A stretch of DNA of 54,341 bases from Callorhinchus milii (taxonomy: Eukaryota): contig NW_024705325.1 of NCBI RefSeq assembly GCF_018977255.1, positions 1-54,341 on the forward strand, in the 5' to 3' direction. Made by a program: the position numbers and the translations under genes. Position 1 is the first letter of the stretch. Each line of letters begins with the position of its first letter. The notes below the pieces were generated by a model. The model was given only the letters and a program-made list of their open reading frames with translations, did no database searches and was not told the DNA's origin. Positions 2,007 to 28,010 of this stretch are shown one piece after another.

Positions 2007-2462
2007 CCACCGATTATCAAAGCCAATGGCGCGTGGCTTGCCGCATTAGCGGGAGCGTTTGGTGCCCGTTGTGTGACGAACAAACGAGAGGGAAAGTTTG
2101 ATCCGGCCTAGTCCGAGGCGATGGCAGGATTTTATATCCGGAGTATCGCTCACCGGCCAGGCTCTGTGGGGTGAATGATGTGATTAATGTTTTGTATAAA
2201 TTAGATGCGCGTTGGTCGCTGCAGCTTAACGGCTTTCATTTCTGAGATTTATATTTTACGAGGAAATACGTCTCAATAAAGCAAGGGAGGCCTGGAGTAA
2301 ATACGCGTTTAAAATAACCATTTAGAATATTGTTCTTTATGCACATTTGCGGCTATCTCGAATACAAGAAAATTATAAATAAATAAAAACCCAGCATGAC
2401 TCCGACTTGGGAGACTGTTCCACGCATTGCTTGTCAACAAATTAAAAAAACAATCGAAGGTT

Positions 2463-2615
2463 CGTTTAATACGTTGGCTTTCGCGACCAATATCATCTAT
2501 AATACAGGGTTTTTTGGGTTAGATCGCAATTTCTAATTGGCTGTGTTGGGTGGTGGCGGGTTTAACGAGACATTTATATTTACGCGATCTAACCCAAAAA
2601 GTACCTGTGTTATGG
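2463..2615 (-). mobile_element. Palindromic short element, family 2, internally shortened
   Basis: Extension gtttaatacgttggctttcgcgaccaatat, then arms tttttgggttagatcgc / gcgatctaacccaaaaa. Flanking repeats acaatcgaaggtt (2450-2462) / acaatcggaggtt (2616-2628). Confidence 0.8.
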
Positions 2616-2959
2616 ACAATCGGAGGTTACCAGGTCAGAGGTCAGAGCATTGTGCTGCCAACCGCTGAGATGCTCGGTTTGATTAGACCGTGTACCCAAG
2701 TGTAGCAAGTTAATGGTCTCAGCCCGGTCAGTAATGCCCACAGAAAGAAAAAAAGCACGAACAAATCATTTTGTCTCGGTTTGGTTTTTATTTAGCTGAA
2801 TTACACCTCTGGAGAATTACAAATTGGAGGCTCTCTCCAAATCAGGAGCACACGGGAAATCGCAGCGCCCCTCAGAGATCGCTCGTAGAGGTCTCGGGAG
2901 TAGTTCCGCGATGACGCCTTCCGCGGACCGTCGCTCTATAACACGAAGGCCGAACAATG

Positions 2960-3552: not shown

Positions 3553-3830
3553 GTGTGTGTGTGTAGCGGTTAGCGCACTGCGGACCCACTGACCCGAGTT
3601 CAATTCCCGCACGTGGCCATCACCAGTGTCGATTATCTGAACCGGTCCTGGGCCTCCCCTAAGTCGACTCGGCCTCAAATGAGTACTTAGTACGGTGTGT
3701 AAACATCAACACGAGAGAGACTAAGGCAGCCGGGAGTGGTGTGCCGTGCTGGCCTTCATAGGTGCTCGCTAGCAGCACTTGCCCCAACAATATGTTAAGG
3801 CTATACGGTGGATCTTTGTCTTTGTGTGTA
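3553..3830 (+). mobile_element. tRNA-derived SINE, family A
   Basis: Box B gagttcaattcc, body gaaccggtcctgggcctcccct-gtcgactcggcctcaaatgagtac, 3' part ggtgctcgct..cagcacttgcccc, tail gatctttgtcttt. A 3' fragment of another copy lies at about 3462-3523. Confidence 0.85.
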
Positions 3831-3833
3831 ATA

Positions 3834-4085
3834 GGGGAGCGGTAGTGTAGTGGTTAACGTGCTGCGCTACGAACCTGGCGACCCGAGTTCGATTTCCGCT
3901 CACGACCAATAACCGTGGGGAAAATCTAAACTGGTCATGGGCCTCCCCTAGGTCGACTCAGCCTTAAATTACCAACTGGTGTGGTGTTTAATATCAGCAC
4001 CAGGGGGACAAATGCAGCTAAGCGTGGTGTTGGCCCCCCTGCCCCCCTCCTTGTGTGCTGTCCCGGTGCTCGCTAATGCCAGACA
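3834..4085 (+). mobile_element. tRNA-derived SINE, family A (tandem with the previous copy)
   Basis: Head ggggagcggtagtgtagtggttaa (box A), gagttcgattt (box B), then ggcctcccctaggtcgactcagcct. Confidence 0.85.
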
Positions 4086-9298: not shown

Positions 9299-10385
9299 AA
9301 CACTCACTGTGATCACCTGGTGTAGTACTTATTTTAGTTCGAGTCAACCTAGGGGATGCCCAGTTTAGAATACCCTTCCATTTGTTACTGGGGTGGGTTT
9401 TGCGTCTTGGCCGGCAAGTAACCTCGCGATTTTGTGGTCGTAGTGCAATGCGTGAACCATCACAACAACATACAAACCCACGGCGAAACTTAGTTTGGCT
9501 TGAAAAGCGAGCTAAAGAGACTAATTCCTAGCGCTCGCAAACCCTCCGAATAAACAACAATGAGCCAAGTCAGTCGCTCAAAGAACACCTCGAGGAAAAA
9601 GCCTTTGGAAGGTTTTCGCTTTTTGACGTAAATTCTGCAAAGAAAAGTGCAGCTGCGAATGGTGTGTGTGGCTGTCTTGAGGGCATGTGTGAGCTGGAAG
9701 GTTGTGTGTGTGTGTGCGCACTGGGGGGAGGGGGAGTGGATTTGTGTCCGGGTTGGCGCATTAGTACGCATCATTACCTCCTTTTCCACGGCAGGAGTTA
9801 GGGCAAGGGTTCCTAACTGCGCGTAAAGCATCGCACAAAGGGAATAGGTTATTTTTTTTCCACCACCGTTTTTTGTGTCTCTTTTTTTTTGTGTGTGTCA
9901 TCTGTCCGAAAAGTGGCAGATCAGCCAAAAACACCAGCTGTTCGGTAAAGGGCGCAGAAAAAATAATTTGCATCATAATGAGCGATTCCCACCCTGCACG
10001 TTACATCGTTATGCGTTCTGCTAATTAATATAAATCGCGCAGTATCAAAGCGTGTGTCGGCCCTTATCAGAAGCTCGGGATAAACACAATTGTCCATGAG
10101 CAAGTCCGCATCGCCTACATGCCGTGCCGCATCAAAAGCACAACATCACACTGTTGTAAACACGTTTTTTTCTCCCTATACGTAAAAACGGAGTTACAGC
10201 TATTTAGAAAATGTTGACGGTCATACTCAAGCCACGGCGCTTTAATTATCGAGCCGTTTTTTACTTGCAGAAGTGAGACGGAAACGTGCCATGCATTGAC
10301 GTTTATTTACGTCGCTTGTCTGGAAGAAAAGAAAGGGGTGTAAGAAAAAATTACTAAAAGTAATAATAGAAATAAAATAATAAAT

Positions 10386-10426
10386 CACGACGTTTCAGAG
10401 GCAACACAAGTCTCCGTCATCAGGTG
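10386..10426 (-). ncRNA. Minimal type I hammerhead ribozyme motif, core intact
   Basis: Minus strand reads cac-CTGATGA-c-GGAG-acttgtgttgc-CTCT-GAAA-cg-TC-gtg: 3-bp stem I, 4-bp stem II opening with a G-U pair, palindromic ACGT in place of stem III, GUC cleavage triplet. Confidence 0.75.
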
Positions 10427-10484
10427 GGACCGTATCTTGGAATCTTTGCCTCACTTGATACAGCAAATCTAGCTGTGACGGTCC

Positions 10485-10525
10485 CACCTGATTACGGAGA
10501 CTTGTGTTGCCTCCGAAACGTCGTG
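10485..10525 (+). ncRNA. Minimal hammerhead motif, probably inactive (G8 to U)
   Basis: cac-CTGATTA-c-GGAG...CTCC-GAAA-cg-TC-gtg. T at 10493 replaces the conserved G8. Confidence 0.65.
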
Positions 10526-10969
10526 ATTTATTATTTTATTTTATTTCTATTATACTTTTAGTAATTTTTTCTTTTCTTTTTTACCTACGTGACTTTACCG
10601 AAAAAACCTAAGAGTATGAATCCTTGCAGTCACGAAAGCTTCAAATCTAGAATTAAAGGGGTGTAAAACCGAGTGACGAGTCGCCGACTGATTTGCTTGG
10701 CGTTGCGTGTAGTGGTGGTGCTCACGGGAGCGCCACATCCTGGACGTGCCCCGAGCGGTGCTGGGACGCCACAGTCGTCATTCCAGTTATGAGAACCCCA
10801 AAAAAAACCTCGCCTAAGTATGTACGTATGTTGAACCTCTTTCACACCGTACGTCGCCAACCGTGGTCATCGGAGGTGCGGGGGAAAGACAAACCTCTCA
10901 ACGAAGTCGCCTATGTGCTCATTCCGCTCGACATATTTGCATCGCTGTGCCTCTCCGCGGCACCGTCAT

Positions 10970-13649: not shown

Positions 13650-14704
13650 CGCAGGGCGTGGTAAGCAAAATAATCCGTGTCCGTTAATATTTACTTATTC
13701 AGGAAAATCCACACTGAGTCGTAGAACTCCAGCGGTGAGTTTTTTTATTGAAAAAAAAATTCAGCCAATTAGTGACGCGTATAAGGTGCCAGCAACTCTC
13801 TCCCGTCCACACACATGGAAACAGGTGGAGATGAGTCCACTTGCTCTACTGCCTTCTGGCGAGCCGGAGTTATGGCACCTCGACGTCCCAAGGAAGGGAG
13901 GTTCACAACACGTGTATGTGTGATCATTGTTTTTTTACCCTTTTTTCTGGCAACAAAACTGACACCTTTTTTACAAGGAGTCATGTTTGCATAGACCACA
14001 ATACCTGCAGTCGTAATGCAAACAAAAAACATAACTCTGATAATGTATGCACTGTCCTTGAAGTTGATTGGTCCACACCCGAGAGACAGCTTTCCTTAGA
14101 GCCTAGTCTCACATGGTGTTGGACCAGATGACGACCAGATGATGCCAAAAAGGTGTGTATGTGTGTGATCAGCAAATCCTTGCCTCCACAGTGCTGGATC
14201 GCAGACAACCACGTGCGTGGCCCCTGCAGCTCGCTTATTTAAATGCCTTTCAAGGCGGTGGTAGCGAATGTGGCCGCGTAGCTGTGTTGGGGAGACGGAG
14301 CGCGTGGATGTGTAGGGATGTGCTCTCGCGTGCGGCAAACTCCCCCGATTTTTGGCAGGAGCTCATCTTACAAACTTTTTTTGTCATGAACTAAAATCCT
14401 TCTGTGTTCGCTGTGAGGGCCGCGCTGCCGAGAGTGATGGGGGAAGCGATCATTTTACCCTTCTTCTTTAGCAATATAGGAGAACAACTCTCAAGTGGTT
14501 TCTGTCTTTCTGCTCGATCACAATTGTCTCTTCTTTTGGATTTCTGAGTGTTAAGGTCCGTTCCTAAATGAAGTACATTTCTTCAGGTATTTTGACGTGG
14601 GCCTGGCTGCAGTGTCATGTTTCAAACATTTTTAGTTTTTCCTTTTTGTTCTTTTTATCTGCGAAGCCTCCCTTGCGTCTCAAGACTCGTGTTCACGAAT
14701 GTTT

Positions 14705-14937
14705 AACACGGAGGCTTTCGCAACCAATATTAACCCTAATAGAGGTTATTGGGTTTAGATCGCGGAAATATAAATGTGTCGTTAAACCCGCCACCACCTA
14801 GTAACGAATTAAACTAGTAACGAATTGGCACGTTTTGTTTACGTGGAAAACCTTACTAATTGGCTGTTGTGGGGTGGTGACGGATTTAACGACACACGTC
14901 TATAATTACGCGATCTAACCCAAAAACCTCGACTATA
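14705..14937 (-). mobile_element. Palindromic short element, family 2
   Basis: Same arms and same one-sided extension (aacacggaggctttcgcaaccaatat). Flanking repeats cgtgttcacgaatgttt (14688-14704) / cgtgttcaggaatgttt (14938-14954). Internal 13-bp duplication ctagtaacgaatt. Confidence 0.8.
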
Positions 14938-15309
14938 CGTGTTCAGGAATGTTTTGCGGAGTGTTTGCCAAAATTCCGTCTGTGCGTATGCCTCCGCGTG
15001 GGAGGACACCAGATTGCCCGGAGAACAGCCCACGCGCATTTGTTGAGCCAGGTTCAACAACTGTTTAGCTTCAGAGATCTCGACGAGATCGGGCATGTTT
15101 AGGTTGCTTTTATCTTTGCGCGAATAGAAACCAAAGTGGCGAGAGAAAACCCACGCTTATCTGGGGATAACGTTTCAAAAATCCGTACAGATGGGTCCGC
15201 AACCGACTCCGCTGTACTGCCATCTGCCGTCCACCTGCGATTTGTGAGTTTCACACGTGCGATGCACCTTCCATCTGCTGGCATAAAGGCGCATGCCCAT
15301 CACACGGAC

Positions 15310-15410: not shown

Positions 15411-15635
15411 TGTACCACAGCCTTGGTCTAGAGCAGCGATGATGACAGACGTGCACCGCTTCGAGGTGACAGGCAGCTGGTGTCGGAAGCCGCCACAGTG
15501 CCGTGAGTGCGGCGCGCGGCGCAGAGTTAAAAGTGACACGGCAGACGGGAGTTTCTCCAAGCAAGTAACGCGCAGAATTACTGTGTCGCTCGCATGCCTT
15601 GTTAGACGTGTGTGTGCGTGTGCCTGCGTTTGTGT

Positions 15636-15909
15636 GGGGAGCGGTGGTGCACTGGTTATTGTGTTGCGCTACGAACCCGGCGACTCGAGTTCAATTCCCG
15701 CTCATGGCCAACACCAGTGACGATTGTCTGAACCGGTCCTGGGCCTACCCTAGATCGACTCGGCCTCAAATGAGTACCTGGTGCCATGAGTAAACATCGC
15801 CACTGGGAGTCAAAGGTGGCCGGGCGTGGTGTTGCCGCCACCCACAACACCTCATCGTGCGCCGTGTCGGCTTTCGTCGGTCCTCGTAAACGGCACTTGC
15901 CCCAGCAGC
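15636..15909 (+). mobile_element. tRNA-derived SINE, family A, near full length
   Basis: ggggagcggtggtgcactggtta, gagttcaattcccgctc, gaaccggtcctgggcct, tcgactcggcctcaaatgagtacc, gcacttgcccc. Confidence 0.88.
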
Positions 15910-17140: not shown

Positions 17141-17400
17141 GCTGCAGCGTAAAGCGGTTGGAGCACCGCGCTACGAACTTGACTACCCAAGTTTGATTCC
17201 CGCTCACGGCCCACTTCAGGAACGATCCCTCGGCCTCCTCTGGCTCAACCCGACCTTAAATGAGTACCTGGCGCCATGTGTGTATACATCAGTACGGGGG
17301 GAGACAAAGGCGGCCCTACCTCCTACTTGTGCACCGTGCTGGCCTTAATAGGTGCTCGCTAATCAACACTTGCCCCAACAGCCTGTGTAGGCTACAAGGG
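17141..17400 (+). mobile_element. tRNA-derived SINE, family A
   Basis: gcgctacgaac, gtttgattcccgctcacggcc, aaatgagtacctgg, ggtgctcgctaa, cacttgccccaaca. Confidence 0.8.
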
Positions 17401-18388: not shown

Positions 18389-18520
18389 CCAATATTAATA
18401 ACAACAATGACAAATCCCTACGATTTATTGTTTTTTGGGTTAGACCGTGAAGGTATATAATGCCATTGTCTATTACCCGCCACCACCCCACAGAGCTGAT
18501 CAAACCACGTTGCCACGTGG
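18389..18520 (-). mobile_element. Old single-arm relic related to family 2
   Basis: ttttttgggttagaccg...tatataa...acccgccaccacccca resembles the left arm of the three intact copies. Confidence 0.5.
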
Positions 18521-19620
18521 TCAAATGTGCCCAACTGATTTGGTTTTTCAGCGAAGCGGAATTTTAAGGCAAGCGAAATGTTGACAGTTTCGCGCGGCGT
18601 TTTGCCGGAGGAGATTATTGCGGCGTGTCACGGCGGAGCCATTACACGGGCGCTGACGTCCGACCCCAGCGTCCGCCCCCAAGGCGTTAAGAGGCGAACG
18701 AATTCCTGTGAAATAAAACAACCGCGTGATTGTTCCAGCGGGAGCGTGCGTGCGTGCGTCTCATCCCACTCACTGTTAATGCTCATAACATTTTTATCCT
18801 CTGACGGTCGGCGCTCTCAATTATCCGGGGGTAACGGGATCGGGGAGGGTGGGGGGATGGTGGCTCGGATAAAACAAACATGGAGTACTTGATGAATAGT
18901 GTATATATTATAACGAGCACAAATCCACATTTTTCCTTTTAATCCTGAAGAGAATTCGACATCTCGCACGCTGCGCTTGTATTTTCACGCGCTCGCCGAT
19001 TTTGCGAACGTTCCACGGACTTTTGGGAACCCTTGCCACCTACGTTGACGCATCGCAGTGGGGTCAGTCTTCCTCGTGTAATAAAGAACGTACACCCCTC
19101 TCGCACACTTTGCGTGCAACTTGTCGTCGTTGTCGACGTGAATGTGCCTGTTGGCATTGTGTTTCTGTTGTTGTGATTGCCGTTGCAGAGTATTTGGCTA
19201 CTGTCGTAAAATCTTAACGCAACAAGCCACTTGGTCGAGCGATCAATTGTAATAGCCGGGTCGCTGTATGGCCCAGTGGGCCTTACCTGGTAAAATAGTC
19301 ATAGTGAAATTTTATTTGAAAAATAAAATGAAAATTGTTAGAATAGAATTCGTCCTTCAAATTGACTTGGATGAAGCCACAGCGGCAGGCCTGGGTCACT
19401 CGTAGAGGCGTGACGGCACGCGGAGTTGTCGGGATGAGGGCTCGCGCTCCAACTGGAACGCCGACGACTCTCCGCCTCTCGTGTTTGACGTCCCGGTTGT
19501 ATCGCTCATCCTTTGTTCCGTCTCCCTTGTGGAGTTTTGTTCGCTCCATTAGCCCACGTGTAACCTACCGTGTGATTTATTGTGCATGTAATAAGCATGC
19601 ATTTGTGTTAATGCATTGCA

Positions 19621-19699
19621 TTGCTGAAGCAGTAATTCTGCTCCAGCAGAATTACTGCTTCAGCAAAATTAACTGCTTCAGCAATGTTGCTGGAGCAGT
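19621..19699. repeat. Double palindrome built from a 13-bp unit TTGCTGAAGCAGT
   Basis: Perfect 22-bp arms at 19621-19642 / 19645-19666, plus 13-bp arms at 19672-19684 / 19687-19699 with one G-T pair. Confidence 0.9.
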
Positions 19700-21184: not shown

Positions 21185-21486
21185 AAAAAGACAAAGATCC
21201 CCCTTATAGCTTTAACAGACTGTAGGGGCAAGTACTGTTAGCGAGCACCTATGAAGGTTGGAAAGGTACACGAGGGGGTGGGTGGCCAGAACCACGCCCG
21301 GCCGCCTTTGTCTCCCCATTGGCGATGCTAACACATCGCACCAGTTACTCATTTGAGGCTGAGTCGACCTAGGGGAGGCCCAGGACCGGTTCATATAATC
21401 GTCACTGGTGTTGGCCGTGAGCGGGAATCGAACCCGGGTCGTTGGGTTAAATGCGCAGCGCGCTAACCGCTCCCCTACCGCTCCCC
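21185..21486 (-). mobile_element. tRNA-derived SINE, family A, full length with TSD
   Basis: Complete head-to-tail copy on the minus strand (box B gggttcgattcc). Direct repeat accctgacaca at 21174-21184 and 21487-21497. Confidence 0.9.
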
Positions 21487-21860
21487 ACCCTGACACACGC
21501 ACACTACCACACGCACCCTGCCACAGGCACTCTGCCACCACACTCCACCCTGTGATAGGCACGGCGAGACCGCGTCGGCGCCTCTGTCCCCTGTGGCGTT
21601 GTCTCGCCGCCGCCGCCGCCACACTCCTCGCCCCGTCGTGAGTCCCCTCTCAGTGCCCAGGCGGCGAAGGGGGTGCGTGGAGGTGGGGGGGGGCGACGAC
21701 GGGGGGGGGGTGATGAGAGTGGGGGGTGAAGTTGGGGCGGAGGGGCGGGCAGTGGCAGACAAAATTACATCTGTGCTCTCCCCCTCCTGCCGTCACTCTC
21801 ACCTTTCTCATTTCTCCCCCTACACTCAGCAATTACCTGGGCGATTCACACTCTTTGTTT

Positions 21861-26394: not shown

Positions 26395-26678
26395 GAGGCA
26401 CAGGTGGAACAGTGGTTAGCATACAAGGCTGTGAGCCCGGTGATCTTTGTTCAATTCCCGCTCGCGGCCAATATCAGTGGCAAACGGAACCGGTCCTGCG
26501 ACTCGTGTAGGTCAACTCACCATGAAATTAGTACAGGGTACGATGTGGAAACTGGCCAGATGTGGTGTTGGCCACCCACCCCCTCGTGTGCCGTGCCAGC
26601 CGTCATAGCTACTCAATAAGAGCATTTGCCCAACAGTCCTTTGTAGCCATACGGGGGTGGGGGGGGCCCTTTGTCTTT
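26395..26678 (+). mobile_element. tRNA-derived SINE, family A, diverged
   Basis: cagtggttagc, gttcaattcccgctcgcggcca, gaaccggtcctg, ggccacccaccccctcgtgtgccgtgc, tail ctttgtcttt. Confidence 0.8.
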
Positions 26679-27557
26679 GAGACGCCTATAAACGGGGGCA
26701 TATTAAATGGTGTGTGCATGAGGCAGCACAGCAAATAGGTGATCTTGTATTTAAAGGTTACCTCTGTGGAATTTGAACATTCCCCTTCGTTTATGGGGTT
26801 TTCTCCCAAGCGCTCTAGTTTTTCGTCCACACACAAGAATACTGAAGTAGCGATCGACCGAACATCTTCAAGGCAGGGCCCTCGCTAAAACAGACCCCCG
26901 GCAGTGTGTGTGGTGAAGCTGTTGCTCTGCAAGAGTAGATCCGCTGCTGTTGTCATTACAGGGATCGCCGTCGCGATGACGCGCTCGCCCCTCCGTGCGC
27001 GCGCCCCTTGATGGCGGCTTTTGTGACGGCCCCCCCGGATCTCTTTGTCAATTTCTTTCCCAAAAGAATCTTGCTCTTGGCGAGGGCTGTGTTGTAAAAT
27101 ACACGTGGTGTTTTTTTGCCGTGGAAATAAACCTTTTTTGAGCCGCTATTAAGGGACGGGCCCAGGTGTCTAAGCCGTGGATTGACAGCGAGTTAGGGCT
27201 GTGCTTCAAACAAAAACAGTATTAGCCAGCTGCCGTATCAACAAGGTTTTTTTTAAAAGTAAAAATACTCGCGAGCAGGGACGGGACGAGGCGGCGGCTG
27301 GAGAAACTCACGTCCGTCCACTTTGCGGGTAATAACCCTCGTAATATTTTGTGCGTTAATGCCAAACAACTGACATCTTTTGGGCTAGAATGTAAGGTGC
27401 GTGTGCGCAGTGCACGGTCAGTGTTATTTACACGTCACATTGAAAGTTAAATAGAAGCGTTTTAATGTGAGGTGCGTACGTTTACAAACGTCCGACATTT
27501 TATGAATGCAGTCGATGCAACCCACGTCCTTCAGCGGTGGAATATAACTCTTGCTCA

Positions 27558-27871
27558 GTTTAACACGTAGGCTTTCGCGACCAATATCTTCCATAGTCCA
27601 GGTTTTTTTTAGTTGGATCGCGTAAATATAAATGTGTCGTTAAACCCGCCACCACCCGACACAGCCAATTGGTAAGGTTTGTCACGTAAACAGAACATGC
27701 CCATTCGTTACTTGAACAGCACACCAGTATGTTGGAGAGCAAATCTATTGTAAATGTTGTGGATTTGCTCTCTAACACGTGACAAACCTTACTAATTGGC
27801 TGTGTCGGGTGGTGGCGGGTTTAGCGACACATTTATATTTACGCGATCTAACCCAAAAATCCTCGATTATG
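27558..27871 (-). mobile_element. Palindromic short element, family 2 (Penelope-like derivative), longest copy
   Basis: About 96-bp inverted arms at 27592-27687 and 27777-27871, an unpaired 34-bp extension at 27558-27591, and flanking direct repeats aactcttgctca (27546-27557) / aacttttgctca (27872-27883). Confidence 0.8.
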
Positions 27872-28010
27872 AACTTTTGCTCAAGGAAGATGAATTTCAA
27901 GCTCTTATCTTGTCGCTACACAACCGAGGCTGCGAGTCCCAGGTTCGGCGATTTTATTCGTAAGATTTATTGATATCGAGCGTGGTTTTAACTTTACTTT
28001 TAGGACATCA

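Follow-up and report, generated by a model that had tools for sequence, protein, structure and literature searches.

What are the three structures with long facing arms in the window (the whole stretch of 54,341 nt analysed here, contig NW_024705325.1 of the Callorhinchus milii assembly GCF_018977255.1), among them the one at positions 27546..27883, and how were they made? Hairpins of this type are easily taken for MITEs or small-RNA precursors, and here they belong to a Penelope-like element (PLE). There is very little doubt that the window copies are PLE insertion stumps. We further consider it probable that all three are 5'-truncated, head-to-head pLTR insertions of an autonomous Penelope/Poseidon-type retrotransposon, built at landing by priming on two strands.

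Structure of the window copies

The three inverted-arm copies lie where the first-pass annotation of this DNA had placed them (2463-2615, 14705-14937 and 27558-27871). Inverted arms, flanking duplications and a one-sided extension of 32-35 nt are confirmed for each. This extension, hereafter the tail, had been given as ~30-34 bp on one side only, which is borne out, the tailless arms ending 32, 35 and 34 nt before the tail end. Copy 3 is bounded by a left target-site duplication of 12 bp (27546..27557, plus strand), with one mismatch to the right one (27872..27883, plus strand). Its tail-bearing arm (27558..27745, minus strand) corresponds to the final ~188 nt of the pLTR, is 90% identical to the RT-GIY-YIG-linked locus L063 described below and ends ~25 nt before a predicted hammerhead cut. 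The 34-nt tail (27558..27591, minus strand), together with an ATG at 27594-27592, reads MEDIGRESLRVK, which is the start of a PLE ORF. The tailless arm (27747..27871, plus strand; 95% identity to L063) begins ~205 nt from the element end and stops at the ATG. It lacks ~40 nt internally, with the jump near 27777 at a short common motif. The predicted fold of copy 3 has an energy of -171 kcal/mol (z = -19.7; equalled by 0/100 shuffles), and in an Rfam scan of the window this copy gave only a sub-threshold miRNA match.

Copy 1 with its 13-bp duplications occupies 2450..2628 (duplications 2450-2462 and 2616-2628, one mismatch), with the tail arm at 2464-2527 on the minus strand and the tailless arm at 2530-2616 on the plus strand. 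Copy 2 with its 13-bp duplications occupies 14688..14950 (duplications 14688-14700 and 14938-14950); its tail arm (14701-14800, minus strand) is followed by a 14-nt junction and then by the tailless arm (~14815-14936, plus strand). Direct repeats of 13, 17 and 12 bp, each with one mismatch, had been described for the three copies. They are found, but the 17 bp of copy 2 (14688-14704/14938-14954, one mismatch) are composed of 13 bp plus the terminal GTTT of the element. Since the element starts at 14701, the last 4 nt of the left 17-mer are its invariant terminus, which the target happens to have too, and the unambiguous duplication is thus 13 bp. A decayed tailless fragment of the same pLTR is the fourth in the window (18432..18496, minus strand, 76% identity). 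No PLE protein was found by tblastn in the window itself.

An autonomous parent and its relatives in the assembly

The assembly was searched with the end of copy 3, which gave 1175 candidates, of which 40 were scored. The 30 loci retrieved all agree at the tail end to within a few bases, and their other ends vary; many are not inverted. At locus L017 an inverted tailed arm abuts a GIY-YIG-like reading frame that runs into the tailless arm. By following this frame, RT, endonuclease, 3' UTR and arm were found contiguous in L061, L062, L063, L064 and L069, and in L063 the tail is contiguous with them as well. The RT of such copies matches Pfam RVT_1 (E = 2e-12). Identity of the six arms in the window is 87-95% to L063 and 84-89% to L083, an element of a sister subfamily. 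As the arm is contiguous with RT-GIY-YIG coding sequence, the copies in the window do not constitute a separate family but are the truncated ends of an autonomous element. Truncation is graded, forming a ladder up to the RT-containing copies, and the inversion point differs in every inverted copy. The proposal of a Penelope-type RT/GIY-YIG machinery has therefore held, the arm being the 3' end (pLTR) of RT-GIY-YIG elements of the assembly, and copies contiguous with a PLE RT-GIY-YIG ORF, suggested as a check, exist in L061-L064 and L069. That of a separate non-autonomous family has to be given up, given that the arm is the end of same-family elements and the copies share no common junction. 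A full-length copy of the window's own subfamily was not found in the assembly, and the ORF start with its continuation was taken from the sister subfamily.

This younger sister subfamily has 77-80% DNA identity to that of the window. Its element L083, on contig C745, holds an intact ORF of 783 aa (L083:5207-2859, minus strand) between two tailed pLTRs; the ORF starts MNNIGRESLRVK inside the tail, and the tail amounts to the first 12 codons of the PLE ORF. Near-identical L083 sequence is also present in sequencing runs of three organisms, with no RNA run among those listed. The L083 protein shows 46% identity over 99% of its length to Anolis P0010, which matches the PAc RNA of PMC11167929 Fig. 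S1 (translated by eye, one residue differs). In the protein alignment, the tail end falls at about nt 118 of the PAc ORF, i.e. within the RT start mapped in vitro at 111-118. RT proteins of insects, lizards, echinoderms and lamprey make up the homologs (120 listed); among those listed, two are labelled GIY-YIG at source (P0075 and P0078) and one carries PF01541. Pfam scans of the element ORFs did not match GIY-YIG, and a Gag_p24 match below cut-off was ignored; the GIY-YIG assignment is based here on aligned motifs and on the labelled homologs P0075 and P0078. Two cysteines lie between GIY and YIG in the alignment (CCHH motif, columns 701-800), and no cysteine cluster of the linker type CX2-5CxxC is seen between RT thumb and GIY. 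A CCHH motif without linker zinc finger is the Penelope/Poseidon pattern as defined in the accessible part of PMC8557442, and by its predicted protein the element shows this pattern. The traits of EN+ PLEs are present: a single ORF with RT followed by GIY-YIG and linked to the repeat, a tail of 30-40 nt on one end that overlaps the ORF start, pLTRs that are direct in L083 and inverted in L017, L061 and L086, and variable 5' truncation.

The pLTR carries a candidate minimal type I hammerhead, located by pattern search. In 15/20 long copies its core (CTGATGA...GAAAC-GTC) is found 248 nt away from the tail end, and the same number has the core together with a predicted helix II and an ACGT helix-III stub. 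A helix II is predicted for either subfamily, and a compensatory pair change was noted on inspection by eye. No hammerhead was matched when the window and 8 loci were scanned with Rfam. Minimal hammerhead motifs in PLE pLTRs are known from PMC4209133, in the part of it that was accessible. The L083 core has C for U at its second position. The predicted cut leaves 213 nt and the window arms reach at most ~205 nt, so the window copies lack the motif. The description of the family as hammerhead-less thus applies to the truncated window copies but not to the family. Without promoter, ribozyme and ORF, the stumps were most likely dead on arrival.

The other hammerhead-bearing family of the window, family 1, was thought to share its end with the present one (family 2). 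A family 1 fold-back copy lies at 10344-10654 (10332..10666 with its duplications); it has hammerhead-like cores and a perfect 12-bp duplication, and its tail reads MNPCSHESFKSRI. The likeness of the two ends is real: the alignment score is 47 against a shuffle mean of 29.9, and 2/2000 dinucleotide shuffles reach 47. The ends align beyond chance because both encode a conserved ORF start. Mobilisation of one family by the other does not follow from this likeness, and we find instead two separate autonomous PLEs. In L151, L154 and L176 an RT-GIY-YIG belonging to family 1 lies upstream of its end, and the family 1 protein is 52% identical to that of L083. Pieces from L151 and L156 are 81-95% identical to Petromyzon P0052, versus 52% for L083. 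The tail end of family 1 is ragged, and the ORF continuation is present in two copies only. Beside the second family 1 copy of the window, a short nested hairpin repeat (19617-19698) gave only sub-threshold Rfam miRNA matches. Contig C1063 contains family-1-like ORF pieces every ~3 kb, and contig C544 six matches to the family 2 22-mer used below at regular spacing; each could be a tandem array or a segmental duplication.

Proposed priming on two strands and its alternatives

An exact 22-mer from inside the arm served to select arms across the assembly; of its 139 matches 100 were listed, and collapsing duplicated junctions left 86 distinct arms. Among the matches listed, the 3' ends are bimodal, with 20/86 arms at the tail end (0-1 nt), 40 at 24-36 nt before it and 26 elsewhere. 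Of the sister arms, 20/36 end at 0-2 nt and 14/36 at 27-35 nt. The 126 distinct tail-bearing insertions comprise 54 inverted, 56 single-arm, 14 complex, 1 open-ended and 1 double-tailed, the last being the only one with a tail on both arms. An adjacent duplication, counted at a score of 8 or more, was found beside 37/54 inverted insertions versus 4/56 single-arm ones (Fisher P = 8e-12), with a permutation null of 1.3% and 0.6%, respectively, and in 0/14 complex and 0/1 double-tailed insertions. This association favours priming from both nicked strands. Nine single-arm insertions have a distant flank match, of which 2 are misclassed inverted copies. In the other 7/56 the match lies at a distance of 570-1060 nt and has no inverted arm next to it (a perfect 12-mer in L302); this exceeds the 1.3% null, and duplications are therefore not exclusive to inverted copies.

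Variable target-site duplications had been put forward as a PLE trait of this family, and their length proves to be rather narrow. It ranges from 8 to 16 bp in inverted copies, with 28/37 at 10-13 bp. In the young subfamily 8/13 rows are true inverted pairs, the other 5 being mispaired or without duplication; the eight pairs have perfect duplications of 13, 13, 12, 12, 12, 13, 12 and 10 bp (12-13 bp in 7/8), lengths that include 1-5 nt common to the tailless end and the target. The flank at the tail end begins with TGA, the next bases of the ORF in L083, in 18/69 cases where 1.3 are expected, and TGA is present in both duplication copies in 6/24. The TGA bias could reflect a preference of the endonuclease instead of primer pairing. 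Junctions within inverted copies show an overlap of 1-7 nt, are blunt or contain filler.

Read together, these ends, which fall either at the tail end or about 27-36 nt before it, suggest how a stump might be made. The element's own RT and GIY-YIG protein would build each copy afresh at the landing site, its endonuclease nicking both strands ~12-13 nt apart. One 3' end would prime at the tail end, aided by pairing of 2-4 nt with the RNA just downstream, and the other would start ~34 nt farther upstream, using either that RNA or a sister molecule. The two cDNAs would run toward the 5' end of the RNA and stop early; these short products, joined head-to-head through microhomology or a short filler, would form a palindrome tailed on one side only. 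The accessible part of PMC11167929 reports that PAc nicks and extends both strands in vitro, that its two RT starts bound the tail and that a dimer is predicted; it also reports initiation as non-homologous. We regard the two-strand priming step, taken by itself, as slightly on the probable side. More tentatively, and with a little less confidence than would make it probable, the stumps may record double target priming by a dimeric PLE protein, with a staggered cut of 12-13 nt and microhomology at the tail end. If double priming is true, then tail, inversion and duplication are explained in one step, and the 'internal initiation' of PLEs uses microhomology in vivo.

The main rival keeps the same element but has it prime on a single strand, the cDNA then folding back to prime itself or to switch template at short pLTR palindromes, an idea present in the accessible part of PMC3846280. 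Junction overlaps of 6-7 nt at short palindromes or inverted repeats in L026, L091 and L110 agree with it, as does the clustering of sister-subfamily junctions at a palindrome 241-251 nt from the end. Arms of one insertion are also alike: in young insertions divergence is 1.6 per 100 nt within versus 5.5 between insertions (n = 7), the corresponding difference being small in the old subfamily (11.8 versus 13.3). Such likeness could also come from gene conversion or from one source element. Fold-back alone, however, does not account for a second arm whose end lies ~34 nt before the tail end, where the second RT start was mapped, and which often has 1-5 nt in common with the target at this end; moreover, many junctions show gaps or filler and not overlap. 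We consider fold-back unlikely. Still less likely is a dedicated, hammerhead-less, non-autonomous family with its own transcription, mobilised in trans. Non-autonomous pLTR derivatives exist in other systems, and short copies do far outnumber long ones here (1175 candidates with the end, 188 with the GIY-YIG region and 9 with the N-terminal region). In addition, 5' ends of the young subfamily are 3.8-fold commoner before the predicted start site than after it (P = 5e-4, post hoc), so that short pLTR-derived RNA ends may feed the stumps. Against a dedicated family, there is no common 5' end or junction but a continuous ladder to RT-containing copies, which largely refutes this reading; most long copies (15/20) have the hammerhead core, and the TATA box at ~296 nt is missing from the copies in the window. 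A non-autonomous PLE derivative or retrozyme would show common unit ends and no linked ORF, and neither is what is found. As for a MITE moved by a DDE transposase, it would fit the long inverted arms and the fairly narrow length of the flanking duplication, but the ends are asymmetric, the inversion points vary, 56/126 tail-bearing insertions are not inverted and the linkage to RT-GIY-YIG is direct. This possibility is practically negligible, and the warning that the family is easily mis-annotated as a MITE was justified.

One candidate explanation of the stump ends was not supported. The prediction, written beforehand, that stumps end at the ribozyme cut or at the transcription start did not hold in the young subfamily (5/18 in the windows, P = 0.13). 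The 5' ends of the old subfamily are in excess at 200-213 nt (16 versus 7.5 expected) and 261-273 nt (12 versus 4.0), in windows picked after looking at the data. Both peaks coincide with a short inverted repeat, and a cut/start reading is therefore not claimed. Only 3/86 arms end exactly at the predicted ribozyme cut. Raw polyA reads from two runs weigh neither way: when aligned to L083, 91% and 67% of them, with the strands alike, run on into unlike sequence, and read ends do not accumulate at its predicted cut or start. In L009 (C778:6907-10075), both arms appear by eye to end at the predicted cut, joined via a 4-nt palindrome. In L302 (C410:38407-41427), a young arm ends exactly at this cut and is followed by ~730 nt of other sequence, beyond which lies a perfect 12-bp flank copy; the intervening stretch is possibly captured or nested sequence.

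Host, known relatives and neighbouring elements

Among the first 100 matches listed for the family 2 22-mer, 2 fall on C5, a large scaffold, and 98 on C106 and smaller contigs, and none of the 47 sister-subfamily matches is on C1-C74. Contigs from C36 on (C36-C1762) make up ~9% of the assembly (interpolated). The CpG observed/expected ratio is 1.01 in the window, 0.22-0.68 in 14 large-scaffold samples and 0.89 in the C5 stretch near the matches; this stretch, near C5:68.0 Mb, has the same character as the small contigs. The lamprey origin assumed by the first-pass annotation fits the protein similarity, but the assembly is possibly mixed: a second organism, lamprey-like, may be the source of the small contigs. 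In CpG content and PLE proteins these contigs look lamprey-like, unlike the large-scaffold samples, and since the family is nearly confined to them, its host is not established. A Petromyzon Penelope/Poseidon entry is cited in the accessible part of PMC11167929.

The following comparisons are limited to the accessible parts of the cited papers. The closest system is Poseidon PAc of Anolis carolinensis (PMC11167929), which has RT followed by a C-terminal GIY-YIG (46% protein identity to the sister element), a tail inside the ORF start whose end is at the codon homologous to the mapped RT start, and a minimal hammerhead in the pLTR. Two differences are seen: the long ORF starts here at the tail (783 aa) and in PAc at an ATG inside the ribozyme, and target ends here often have 2-4 nt in common with the template, unlike the non-homologous initiation of PAc. 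The EN+ Penelope of Adineta vaga (PMC3846280) and Penelope of Drosophila virilis (PMC2377424) likewise have inverted pLTRs, an optional one-arm tail of 31-37 nt overlapping the ORF start and duplications around inverted units, of 8-10 bp there and mostly 10-13 bp here. Unlike in these two, hundreds of copies consist here of two facing pLTR stumps of 150-450 nt, in a lamprey-like host. With the general PLE architecture (PMC8557442, PMC8969392) the element shares 5' truncation, an inverted 5'-truncated copy and a 30-40 bp tail at either end, and we see no difference in kind. Non-LTR retrozymes (PMC7761336; bioRxiv 10.64898/2026.07.22.740005) are also short pLTR-related sequences in PLE-bearing animals, but they are head-to-tail ribozyme repeats, whereas the stumps are head-to-head, without ribozyme and of no common unit length.

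Inverted pLTRs, an optional ORF-start tail and short duplications are thus already in print, and the element is ordinary in kind. The gain is incremental for this reason, the kind of element and its architecture being known. The literature treats the origin of inverted pLTRs and tails in PLEs as an open question, and the accessible parts of PMC8557442 and PMC8969392 leave the mechanism of inversion open. Concrete predictions for the existing PAc in vitro system follow from three observations: inversion goes with duplication, duplication lengths fall in a narrow range, and target ends show microhomology to the template. In the literature searched, which lies outside subscription journals and Repbase reports, we found no paper on this PLE family and no double-priming reading of PLE inversion.

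Several neighbouring elements were noted. A SINE-like dispersed family with a tRNA-like head (by eye) is present in the window at 3575-4037, 15610-15907, 17153-17362, 21187-21512 and 26411-26636; ARAGORN called no tRNA, these heads included. In L061, a helicase-like insertion (L061:3175-5895), presumably of Helitron type by its motifs, interrupts the inverted arm, and an N-terminal piece of the family 1 PLE interrupts the other end. In L086 (C613) two nearly full ORFs are arranged head-to-head as a long pair, with a 13-bp duplication, and L087 (C75) was noted alongside it. The ORF pair is adjoined in L086/L087 by a transposase-like open frame, which we take to be of hAT type.
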